A stretch of DNA of 64,000 bases, from contig OX597838.1 of NCBI GenBank assembly GCA_951406725.2, positions 39,122,001-39,186,000 on the forward strand. The letters run 5' to 3'. The first letter of the stretch is position 1. Each line of letters begins with the position of its first letter. A program made the position numbers and the translations under genes. Source of the stretch: Octopus vulgaris (Eukaryota). The notes beneath the pieces were generated by a model. That model had not been told where the DNA came from. It saw only the letters and a program-made list of their open reading frames with translations, and did not search any database. This document shows, piece by piece, positions 18,535 to 55,247 of the stretch.

Positions 18535-19460
18535 TATTTAAATAATGAGGGAGATAAATTAATATTAATTTTAATTTCAATTTAAAACCTGTAGTCTAGC
18601 ATACAAAAATCTGAAAATTCAGAGAAAAATTCTAATACATGTGTATATTGACAGGGCAAGACTGCTAGGTAGTCGGCCGCATGCTAGAAATAGATCATCA
18701 ACGATCAAACTACAAAGAATGTTCTCTAGAGGAAAATTTAGCGAACACCAGAACCAAATTTGGCGGGCAGGACAGATGAAAATTTATATAAAAAAACAGA
18801 ATTAATCGCATACCTCGGTTTCAGCCTTTAACAAAAGAATTACTTACATAATTCAAATGTCCGTGGCCTCGTCAATACGATCGTTCAAAATAAATGTAAT
18901 TTGAAAAACTAACCCCAGCTTTCTGTGCCAAAACAGACACGTGTTTAGTTTTACCGATTACATTAGGGATAAATTTCAAATGTCTTAGTTCCGGCGCGCT
19001 AAAAATTCCTGAAGCGAAGAACTGCAGTAAATGATTCACTGCGGTTAATGCTGGCTACTAGGGAACGTATTTATTTCAATATTTAAATGAGGGAGATGAA
19101 TTAATATTAATTTTAATTTCAATTTAAAACCTAATGTAATCGGTAAAACTAGTCACGTGTCTGTTTTGGCACAGAAAGCTGTGGTTAGTTTTTCAGATTA
19201 CATTTATTCTGAACGATCGTACTGACGAGGCCACGGGCATTTGAATTATGTAAGTAATTCTTTTGTTAAAGGCCGAAACCGAGGTATGCAATTAATTCTG
19301 TTTTTTATATAAATTTTCATCTGTCCTGCCCGCCAAATTTGGTACTGGTGTTCGCTAAATTTTCCTCTAGAGAACATTCTTTGTAGTTTGTTCGTTGATG
19401 ATCTATTTCTAGCATGCGGCCGACTACCTAGCAGTCTTGCCCTGTCAATATACATATGTA
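18535..19460. mobile_element. Non-coding PLE-like / retrozyme-like element 1
   Basis: Direct repeats 18535-18590 and 19080-19132; inverted repeats 18636-18967 and 19130-19460; a hammerhead motif in each inverted arm. Confidence 0.75.
19218..19290 (+). ncRNA. Type I hammerhead ribozyme motif
   Basis: GTA CTGACGA GGCC...GGCC GAAA CC GA GG TA TGC: intact core, stem II GGCC/GGCC, short stem III, GUA cleavage triplet. Confidence 0.75.
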
Positions 19461-19609
19461 TGTATCTATGTATCTTTTATCATTTGCTTCTATCTCTCAT
19501 TAGGACTGCAGACATGCTTGGGCATCAATCGTCAAGCGATGGACAAGAGACACACAAACACACACATGCCCGTATATGTGTGTATATATATATATATATA
19601 TATATATAT

Positions 19610-19998
19610 ACTCTTTTACTCTTTACTCTTTTACTTGTTTCAGTCATTTTACTGCGACCATGCTGGAGCACCACCTTTAGTCGAGCAACTCGACCCCAGG
19701 ACTTATTCTTTGTAAGCCCAGTACATATTTTATCGGTCTCTTTTGTGACGGGGACGTAAACACACCAGCATCGGTTGTCAAGCAATGCTAGAGGGACAAA
19801 CACAGACACACAAACATATACACACACATACATATATGTATATATATACAGTTTCCGTCTACCAAATCCACTCACAAGGGTTTGGTCGGCCCGAGGCTAT
19901 AGCAGAAGACACTTGCCCAAGATGCCACGCAGTGGGACTGAACCCGGAACCATGTGGTTGGTTAGCAAGCTACTTACCACACAGCCACTCCTGCGCCT
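19610..19998 (-). mobile_element. SINE family A
   Basis: Family A head and tail with a small internal deletion. Confidence 0.8.
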
Positions 19999-52714: not shown

Positions 52715-54795
52715 AACATACATACATACATACATACATACATGCATACATGCATACACATACATACATGCATGCATGTATGCATACATACATACATGCA
52801 TGCATACATACATACATTTACATACATAGATGCATACATGCATACATACATACATATGCATACATGCATATATGCGTACATGCATACATATATACATGCA
52901 CATACATACATAGATGCATACATACATACATGCATACATGCATGCATACATACATACATGCATACATGCATACATATCATGCATACATGCATACATATAT
53001 ATGCATGCATACATACATACATACATACATATGCATATGCGTGCATGCATACATATGCATACATGCGTGCGTGCGATACGTGCGTGCGTGCGTGCGTGCG
53101 TGCATCGATGCGTGCGTGCGTGCGTGTGTGCGTGCGTGCGTGTCGTGCGTGCGTGCGTGCGTGCGTGCGTGCGTGCGTGCGTGCGTGTGTGCGTGCGTGC
53201 GTGCGTGCGTGCGTGCGTGCGTGCGTGCGTGCGTGCGTGTGTGCGTACGTACGTGCGTGCGTGCGTGCGTGCGTACGTGCGTGCGCGTGCGTGCATGCAT
53301 GCATGCATGCGTGCGTGCGTGCGTGCGTGCGTGCGTGCATGCATGCATGCATGCATGCATGCATGCGTGCATGCATGCGTGCGTGGGTGCGTTGGCGTGC
53401 GTGCGTGCGTGCGTGCGTGCGTACACGTGCGTGCGTGCGTGCATGCGTACGTACGTGGTGCGTGCGTGCGTACACGTGCGTGCGTGTATACGTACACATG
53501 CGTGCGTGCGTGCGTGCGTGCGTGCATGCAGCCGTGACGTGCGTATGTGCGTGCGTGTGTGCGTGCGTGCAAGTTGTGCGTGCGTGCGTGCGTGCGTGCG
53601 TACGTACGTGCGTGCGTGCGTGCGTGCGTGCGTGCGTGTAACGTGTACGTGCGTGCGTGTACGTGCGTGCGTACGTGCACATGCGTACGTACGTACGTGC
53701 GTGCGTGCGTGCGTGCGTGCGTGCGTGCGTGCGTACGTACTGCGTGCGTGCGTGCGTGCGCGTGCGTGCGTGCGTGCGATGCTGTGCGTGCGTGCGTGCG
53801 TGCGTGCGTGCGTGCGTGCGTGCGTGCGTGCGTGCGCGCGCGCGTGCGTGCGTGCGTGCGTGCGTGCGTGCGTGCGTGCGTGCAGTGCGTGCGTGCGTGC
53901 GTGCGTGCGTGCGTGCGTGCGTGCGTGCGTGCGTGCGTGCGTCTGCGTGCGTGCGTGCGTGCGTGTGTGCGTGCGTGCATTGCGTGCGTGCGTGCGTGCG
54001 TGCCGTGCGTGCGATGCGTGCGTGCGTGCGTGCGTGCGTGCGTGCGTGCGTACGTACGTACATTACACGTACGTACGTACGTGCGTGCGTGCGTACGTAC
54101 GTACGTACATACATACATACATACATACATGCATACATGCATACATGCATACATACATACATGCATGCATGTATGCATACATACATACATACATACATAC
54201 ATGCATACATACATACATACATACATACATACATACATACATACATACATACATACATACATACATACATACATACATACATGCATACATGCATGCATAC
54301 ATACATACATACATACATACATGCATGCATACATACATACATACATACATACATACATACATACATACATACATAGATGCATACATACATACATGCATAC
54401 ATGCATACATACATACATACATACATGCATGCATGCATACATACATACATACATACATACATACATGCATGCATACATACATACATATACATACATACAT
54501 ACATACATACATACATGCATGCATACATACATACATACATACATACATACATACATACATACATACATGCATGCATGCATGCATGCATACATACATACAT
54601 ACATACATACATACATACATACATATATACATACATACATGCACACATACATACATACATACATACATATATACATACATACATACATACATACATACAT
54701 ACATACATACATACATACATACATACATACATACATACATACATACATACATACATACATACATAAATACATACATACATGCATATATGCATACG
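52715..54795. repeat. ~2-kb CRTR tetranucleotide array: (CATA)n-(CGTG)n-(CATA)n
   Basis: Direct reading; produces the 500-744 aa pseudo-ORFs. Confidence 0.95.
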
Positions 54796-54998
54796 TACAA
54801 ACAGATATGACACTACAGGAATGTCTAATGACCGCTGATCTCTTCCCGAAGCACTTATTTGCCAAGCTTCCAGATACAATATACTCTAAGCCCTTAAGTT
54901 ATTCATGTCGTAATCTTATCTATATAAAGGATTATACATACTCCGCTTCATATATATATATATATATATATATATATATATATATATATATATATATA

Positions 54999-55247
54999 CT
55001 TTATTTAAAGCAGCAGAAAATTCAACAAATGCCGTTCATCAGACAGTTTTTGTTAGAATGGAACCGATATATCTATTGATATATCGGTTCCATTCTAACA
55101 AAAACTGTCTGATGAACTGCAACGAGAAACTCAGAGTAACAGATTTTGTTTAATTTTCTGCTGCTTTAAATAAAGCATATTACTCTACCACTGGTATTTG
55201 AGTACTCTTTTTTTCACCTTGTTTCACATTTATGTGTTTACTCCGGT
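54999..55247 (+). mobile_element. Palindromic PLE-like insert in (TA)n with hammerhead
   Basis: Palindrome 54999-55175 centred near 55076, followed by a unique T-rich tail to 55247. Confidence 0.7.
55105..55142 (+). ncRNA. Type I hammerhead ribozyme motif
   Basis: CTGT CTGATGA ACTGCAACGA GAAA CTCAGAG TA ACAG: stem I CTGT/ACAG, stem III CTC/GAG, GUA triplet; stem II pairs poorly. Confidence 0.62.

Follow-up and report, generated by a model that had tools for sequence, protein, structure and literature searches.

Non-coding hammerhead-ribozyme units and truncated ends of Penelope-like elements in a 64-kb stretch of the Octopus vulgaris genome

We analysed 64,000 nt of the Octopus vulgaris genome (OX597838.1, positions 39,122,001 to 39,186,000; hereafter the window), a microsatellite-rich stretch of a 2.8-Gb assembly of 227 contigs, for five inserts with type I hammerhead ribozymes (HHRs): F1 (18.5–19.5 kb), F2 (25.8–26.5 kb), F3 (44.6–46.9 kb), F4 (49.5–49.8 kb) and F5 (55.0–55.2 kb). 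The inserts appear to be of two kinds. F1 and F2 are best read as non-coding hammerhead units, likely copied into (TA)n by a reverse transcriptase (RT)/endonuclease of the Hydra clade of Penelope-like elements (PLEs), and F4 and F5 as cut-off 3' ends of coding PLEs, with F3 likely another; we place the probability of this reading at roughly 0.7. An earlier sequence-only reading had framed all five as retrozyme families, a framing that is lowered by the finding that three of the five are ordinary PLE remnants, or likely so for F3.

Hammerhead motifs and the repeat families that carry them

We searched the window with a type I HHR descriptor (CUGANGA, helix II, GAAA, a palindromic helix III, UH and helix I). 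It matched five times, always on the forward strand (19222, 46802, 49619, 55109 and an extra site at 63194), compared with 0.07 matches on average, and never more than 1, in 300 block-wise dinucleotide shuffles. The F2 motif (26101, reverse strand) has the core letters and was missed by the descriptor because helix III of the window copy carries an A.A mismatch at positions 15.2/16.2; these positions are paired in other F2 copies, which fit the descriptor. The presence of five HHR motifs beside (TA)n, claimed by the sequence-only reading, was thereby borne out, four by the descriptor far above shuffles and F2 by its core letters and the pairing in other copies. (TA)n adjoins all five inserts.

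Helix III is palindromic and 3–4 bp long in all five motifs, and helix II is long in F1–F4, with the core halves 28–56 nt apart (28–46 nt in F1/F2). Rfam gave no gathering-level match on five loci, and a scan of the window, swamped by microsatellite and miRNA matches, held no hammerhead among the matches listed (150 of 539). The blank at gathering level may be owing to the long helix II of F1–F4. PMC8557442 mentions 'half core' cases 35–50 nt apart, one of them in an octopus Naiad, and these may be long-helix-II motifs as well. As isolated sequences, the HHR motifs folded no better than shuffles (z −1.9 to +0.7).

Each of F1–F5 is a member of a dispersed repeat family, with 1776, 1147, 717, 922 and 1619 first-look candidates, respectively. 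Forty candidates were scored per family, and the loci compared were the best 20–30 of those, picked with HHR-containing queries. With the core thus part of the query, it was intact in 31/33 copies of F1, 42/42 of F2, 10/19 of F3, 19/20 of F4 and 20/20 of F5. Inverted duplications, claimed by the sequence-only reading for every insert, were present at F1, F2, F3 and F5, whereas the inverted part of F4 amounts to no more than ~28 nt. No inverted or second arm in the window has an intact core: F1 carries C3->U, F2 and F3 retain the 3' half only, and in F5 the GAAA half is deleted.

F1 and F2 as self-contained tandem units

The window copies of F1 and F2 comprise the following features, with u denoting the position after the cleavage site.

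18535..19131, reverse strand: F1 retrozyme-like unit, inverted arm of ~1.1 units that begins at u221 and reaches the distal 3' end at about u280; HHR with C3->U
19121..19461, forward strand: F1 arm, from u380 to the proximal 3' end at u176, of the 545-nt unit
19219..19289, forward strand: type I HHR of F1 with its core at 19222, a long helix II and a palindromic helix III of 3 bp; cleavage predicted after 19286 (GUA)
25814..26357, reverse strand: F2 retrozyme-like copy covering 1.1 times the 486-nt unit, from u180 to u235
26046..26106, reverse strand: type I HHR of F2 with its core at 26101, helix III mismatch in the window copy; cleavage predicted after 26051 (AUA)
26356..26522, forward strand: F2 inverted arm, from u459 to u144, 3' half of the HHR only

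Monomers were taken from real arrays and measure 545 nt (F1) and 486 nt (F2), with a GC content of 0.34 and 0.33. Going upstream from the HHR, one re-enters the downstream part of the same unit, that is, the copies are circularly permuted. F1 forms a trimer with three HHRs (L032/L220) and F2 forms dimers with two (L051 and L046). After de-duplication, 33 of 50 fetched F1 loci and 42 of 50 fetched F2 loci were distinct. On the upstream side, 16/33 F1 and 25/42 F2 copies extend beyond the distal 3' end and enter their own unit again, and 14/33 (up to 2.9 units) and 23/42 are longer than one unit; an inverted arm is carried by 15/33 and 21/42. There are two preferred 3' ends: 28 of the 33 F1 copies end within 16 nt of u176 or u287, and 39 of the 42 F2 copies within the same distance of u144 or u236. 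The 3' end is at (TA)4 in 28/33 F1 and 41/42 F2 copies, and the 5' ends are scattered.

Among the fetched loci, no F1 or F2 copy ran into an open reading frame (ORF), and no shared non-unit sequence was seen upstream of the copies. The longest ATG-initiated ORF has 10 aa in F1 and 32 aa in F2 on the sense strand, and 56 aa in antisense; TBLASTN of the units against PLE proteins gave no match at E<1. Rolling-circle translation was considered and ruled out, there being no stop-free frame longer than 69 codons. Both monomers fold more strongly than shuffles, with z −5.2 (F1) and −6.9 (F2) as circles and −4.6 and −4.0 as linear molecules. By comparison, the last 500 nt of F3, F4 and F5 fold weakly (linear z −0.3 to −0.6).

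Each family has a relative of the same build. F1c (507 nt; 1246 first-look candidates) is 56% identical to F1 and collinear with it, its copies are 99–100% alike, and its 3' ends lie at u171 and u266; at one locus (L265:1172-1678; G000:C2:89384021-89387319) five units stand on one strand together with two inverted ones. The F1/F1c consensus fold exceeds column shuffles (z −6.1). F2b (L281–L305; L015:2270-2560; 1962 first-look candidates) is a ~67% relative of F2, and by eye 14 of its 25 loci are permuted. About 12 more type I HHR families, whose helix III is palindromic and in many cases accompanied by a long helix II, were seen in the flanks of L009, L042, L060, L083, L092, L105, L120, L160, L161 and L181.

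F1 and F2 thus show these sequence traits of non-LTR retrozymes (LTR, long terminal repeat): every unit contains a type I HHR, two or more complete HHRs follow one another in tandem copies, and the units are small, non-coding and low in GC. On genomic sequence we assign them as non-LTR-retrozyme-like. They do not resemble the plant LTR retrozymes, which have type III HHRs in LTRs: the topology is type I, the units are in tandem and there is no LTR pair (primer-binding sites and polypurine tracts lay outside the search). Four contig sets of guessed RNA origin covered 17, 26, 1 and 7 of 30 bins of the F1 trimer with no joints or ends, and are uninformative on expression or circles; the junction of a circle would read the same as that of a tandem array.

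Coding elements behind F4, F5 and probably F3

F3–F5 occupy the following intervals of the window.

44607..44837, reverse strand: F3 inverted arm, tail and 3' half of the HHR
44836..46945, forward strand: F3, probable 3' untranslated region (UTR) and end of an old coding PLE in pieces (44836-45378, 46153-46330, 46731-46945) with other repeats between; HHR core at 46802, predicted cut after 46877 (GUC)
49456..49483, reverse strand: inverted 28-nt copy of the F4 proximal 3' end
49484..49604, no strand assigned: 121-nt segment, 100% identical to G000:C4:99616493-99616613 (L225), its only other match
49606..49812, forward strand: F4, 3' end of a coding Hydra-like PLE, beginning where a ~700-nt intron has its 3' splice site; HHR with its core at 49619, predicted cut after 49675 (GUA), C15.2->U wobble in the window copy
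54999..55074, reverse strand: F5 fold-back arm, GAAA half deleted
55075..55247, forward strand: F5, pseudo-LTR (pLTR) of a young Hydra-clade PLE; HHR core at 55109, predicted cut after 55138 (GUA)

The parent of F5 is the most complete. One locus (L107) has the layout pLTR, 723-aa RT/GIY-YIG ORF, 3' UTR, pLTR; a GIY-YIG domain lies upstream of the F5 end in L092 and L097, and the ORF starts directly downstream of it in L098. By eye, 9 of 20 F5 copies continue upstream into the 3' UTR. The parent has a single ORF, RT followed by a C-terminal GIY-YIG, with the motifs RWK, DKT, CxCX5C (intact in L105, C->F in L107), CxxC and CxH, which PMC8557442 (section 11) gives as Hydra-clade diagnostics. Pfam and PDB searches of the ORF gave no match; its Atlas neighbours carry GIY-YIG/RVT_1/HTH_animal (0.96–0.99). 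Compared with Hydra-2_aMil (PMC8557442 supplement), the F5 HHR is identical in helix I and nearly so in helix III, and F5 has two further traits of the clade, a canonical HHR in the pLTR and a (TA)n target. By diagnostic motifs, HHR and target, we place the F5 parent in the Hydra clade; a Neptune-type affiliation was dropped on the diagnostic motifs. When the first 124 residues of the ORF were used as query, 61 loci among the matches listed (150) had open frames of at least 716 aa by our own count, and many intact ORFs of ~727 aa were found. With so many near-full-length open frames, the family must be young. F5 folds back at one short palindrome just upstream of the HHR in 7 of 20 loci (the window at 54999-55247; L082–L089). 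A separately propagating hairpin subfamily was ruled out, as the arms hold each copy's own variants and the query had spanned the junction.

F4 leads to a related coding element. In copy L101, RT (E 5e-25) and endonuclease (EN; E 1e-13) matches lie 2.0–3.5 kb upstream of the HHR; L102 has EN and L103 neither. The similarity of the parent is 41–48% in RT and 30% in EN (TBLASTN). An intron (GT-AG, 694–701 nt; upstream copies L006/L012/L013) ends 13 nt before the HHR core, much as the D. virilis Penelope intron ends next to helix I (PMC4209133). Among 20 F4 copies, 10 are spliced exactly (9 by pattern, 1 by eye), 6 are unspliced and 4 are otherwise. Exact loss of a GT-AG intron in half the copies shows an RNA step in the spread of F4, whose spliced and unspliced forms have both become integrated. 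Six of the 20 copies continue upstream into the 3' UTR, and we identify F4 as the 5'-truncated end of a coding Hydra-like PLE. The 121-nt segment between the 28-nt F4 end and the F4 pLTR is likely a templated capture, through a template switch during insertion. We had considered the F4 left arm as a sixth family and ruled this out, only one other locus being found.

F3 is likely the cut-off 3' end of an older, decayed coding PLE. Its copies share a long AT-rich region upstream, and walking outward along it led to L212, whose RT is decayed (E 2e-16 against PLE_B, 4e-10 against the F5 ORF) and whose EN match is weak (E 0.014); L212 is connected to the F3 end via the overlapping loci L217 and L213. 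Two points weigh against this assignment: the span from RT to HHR is complete in no single F3 copy, and the GIY-YIG match is weak at that E value. The F3 core decays like its flanks (11/209 vs 89/1710). The start of the insert, previously set at 44738, is in fact near 44607, and the insert also holds foreign repeats. Nested in it is an inverted pair (88%) of a common repeat, at 45930-46132 and 46523-46736.

The absence of a coding connection, which the sequence-only reading had asserted for all five inserts, stands for F1 and F2 among the copies fetched. It does not for the other three, which extend into coding PLEs directly (F5 and F4) or via overlapping loci (F3).

Two further PLEs lie in the window.

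55480..58270, reverse strand: PLE_A, a broken RT + GIY-YIG PLE with a CX4CxxC linker; HHR core with A9->C near 55635
59418..63330, no strand assigned: PLE_B, a rearranged Hydra-like PLE; RT ORF at 60687-62315 (reverse strand), 41% to the F5 ORF; sixth HHR at 63194-63267 (forward strand)

PLE_A, which also sits within (TA)n and whose helix III has 2 bp, is probably of Neptune/Nematis type. The sixth HHR lies at the PLE_B end (63004-63330), and an assembly gap (59318-59417) adjoins PLE_B. PLE proteins of this genome resemble Hydra-1_Obim, the octopus member of the Hydra clade (Craig et al. 2021, PMC8557442), and the F3 and F4 parents and PLE_B are related to Hydra-clade PLEs by TBLASTN. Compared with described Hydra-clade PLEs, the 3' UTRs are longer (the distance between the end of the ORF and the HHR is ~1.1 kb for F5, ~2 kb for F4 and probably more for F3) and the elements exceed 3 kb; further differences are the ~700-nt intron just before the HHR in F4 and the long helix II in F3, F4 and PLE_B.

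Elsewhere in the window, a near-perfect palindrome around a TA tract (31280-32995; 525-nt arms, 100% complementary) may be an assembly artefact. A short inverted-repeat insert between TA tracts (24901-25148) has CTGAAGA on both arms and no fitting GAAA or helix III. There is also a LINE-type RT fragment with zf-RVT (4322-5489), and 184-bp tandem repeats lie at 338-712 and 32785-33334.

Proposed mobilisation of F1 and F2 and their place among retrozymes

We propose the following route for F1 and F2. Tandem arrays would be transcribed, and two HHRs would dimerise through their palindromic helix III and excise monomers, which would be ligated into structured circles. GIY-YIG would nick (TA)n, and the RT would prime on the nick at either of the unit's two AT-rich sites. 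Synthesis that proceeds around the circle, or follows an uncleaved multimer, would give copies that cross the cleavage site and exceed one unit, and a second priming or a fold-back would yield the inverted arm.

A Hydra-type RT would be the mobilising enzyme. This clade is the best guess because F3–F5 share the two-end anatomy, stopping at (TA)n at either of two 3' sites and carrying inverted arms, because the style of helix III fits and an intact family exists, and because one locus joins F1 to F4. There (L030:1322-2035) an F1 copy passes without a gap into an F4 3' end, through what may be a template switch or a nested insertion. That F1 and F2 are non-autonomous and use PLE enzymes, as the sequence-only reading had proposed, is consistent with non-coding, permuted units that have PLE-like ends; its suggestion of the PLEs at 55.5–63.3 kb as helpers found no such backing, as no sequence link between F1/F2 and PLE_A or PLE_B was found, and the young Hydra family behind F5 would be the better candidate.

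Several observations weigh against the proposal. The F1–F4 junction is a single case, F1 and F2 share only short AT-rich bits with the five PLE ends compared (F3, F4, F5, PLE_A and PLE_B, a subset of PLE families), and PLE_A, probably of another PLE type, is likewise in (TA)n. Our sample consisted of top-scoring loci (the best 20–30 of 40 scored among 864–1776 candidates) picked with HHR-containing queries, which inflates core conservation and the crossing of the cleavage site and could let a rare coding partner escape, and 17/33 F1 and 17/42 F2 copies are too short to reveal what lies upstream. The antisense strands of F1 (z −4.0) and F1c (z −7.1) fold about as strongly as the sense strands, and compensatory pairs between F1 and F1c (21, compared with 15 ± 4 and a maximum of 26 in column shuffles) are not in excess. 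An uncleaved linear multimer would leave the same genomic copies as a circle. For related motifs, 8 of 9 Xenopus retrozyme dimers are reported without in vitro cleavage (Li, Clavereau & Pollet 2026 preprint, 10.64898/2026.07.22.740005), and minimal PLE HHRs cleave poorly (PMC4209133).

F1 and F2 could have moved from linear, uncleaved multimeric transcripts with the HHR as a weak or inactive passenger, a course that we hold possible, though clearly the less likely one. Uncleaved multimers and circles explain copies across the cleavage site equally well, isolated motifs miss the active fold in minimum-free-energy predictions, and cleavage reported for related motifs is low or absent (Li et al. 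preprint; PMC4209133). However, F1, F1b, F1c, F2 and ~12 further families have different stems around a retained core, the monomers fold strongly as circles, and circles have been demonstrated for coral, mussel and axolotl retrozymes (PMC7229834). Use of another helper, whether a Neptune/Nematis-type PLE such as PLE_A, a Naiad or a LINE, seems to us rather unlikely. It would accord with the lack of a sequence match between F1/F2 and Hydra ends and with the (TA)n setting of PLE_A, (TA)n being a target of Naiads too (PMC8557442), but a 3–4-bp palindromic helix III matches the Hydra HHR table (PMC8557442 supplement), compared with 2 bp in PLE_A, and the two-end anatomy of F3–F5, the intact young Hydra family and the L030 junction also favour the Hydra clade.

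That all five inserts are truncated pLTRs, with the F1/F2 tandems as multi-pLTR arrays of an unsampled coding PLE, is improbable. Such an origin holds for F3–F5, and for F1 and F2 it gains from the sampling of top-scoring loci only, about half of the copies being uninformative. Against this, all long copies (16 of F1, 25 of F2) enter their own unit, whereas 6/20 F4 and 9/20 F5 copies enter a 3' UTR, and F1c and F2b behave as F1 and F2 do. Least probable by far is a spread without an RNA step, as DNA-level satellites or as repeats like MITEs (miniature inverted-repeat transposable elements) or Helitrons: tandem arrays do exist, but the copies are dispersed over many contigs, with fixed 3' and ragged 5' ends and with inverted arms that end at the same two sites. 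This combination is a signature of target-primed reverse transcription (PMC8557442).

Both kinds of insert, non-coding retrozymes and truncated ends of coding PLEs, are already known in animals, and the idea that links them has been published. Animal non-LTR retrozymes were the subject of Cervera & de la Peña 2020 (PMC7229834), who described PLEs as their likely mobilisers, and the preprint by Li et al. argues for a PLE origin of retrozymes and calls the mechanism of mobilisation open; in both (in the Discussion of PMC7229834), the enzyme that moves animal retrozymes is proposed, not demonstrated. Like those elements, F1 and F2 are non-coding, low-GC (33–34%) tandem units with one type I HHR each, occur in copies of one to several units in a genome that also has PLEs, and have strong predicted self-pairing. 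They are longer than the 150–450 bp retrozymes of PMC7229834 and fall inside the 51–972 bp of the preprint, and their HHR differs in its extended helix II and 3–4-bp palindromic helix III. In Xenopus, 24 of 57 families match known repeats, nearly all of them PLEs (Li et al. preprint), whereas no matching pLTR was found for F1 and F2 among the PLE ends compared. The accessible parts of PMC7229834 and the preprint do not describe paired 3' ends at fixed sites, insertion at TA tracts or inverted arms for animal retrozymes, and literature searches of incomplete coverage found no title or abstract opening that concerns retrozymes of cephalopods.

Minimal HHRs in PLE pLTRs, in which the palindromic helix III serves dimer activity and cleavage, were described by Cervera & de la Peña 2014 (PMC4209133). 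The motifs here resemble them in being mostly single motifs from truncated PLEs, in opposite-strand pairs 100–700 bp apart and in the palindromic helix III; they differ in a helix III of 3–4 bp and in the self-contained tandem units of F1 and F2. F3, F4 and F5, with RT/GIY-YIG upstream, are not ORF-independent non-coding tandem units. F1 and F2 are new examples of retrozyme-like units with an unusually clear insertion anatomy.

A single genome thus holds non-coding units and coding Hydra PLEs that share insertion anatomy, both with near-identical young copies, and the question of the mobilising enzyme is therefore directly testable. More tentatively, and at odds that we would put well below even, F1/F1c and F2/F2b may be old, independent lineages of structured circular-RNA parasites with no coding parent, in which a Hydra-clade RT would recognise the RNA by its shape and by a fixed pair of priming sites, with no need for a common sequence, and long-helix-II HHRs may form a class missed by standard descriptors and Rfam. 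If this is true, the very young F1c and the intact 727-aa Hydra family would be the pair with which to demonstrate circle-templated, target-primed retrotransposition of an animal retrozyme, which would be a first.

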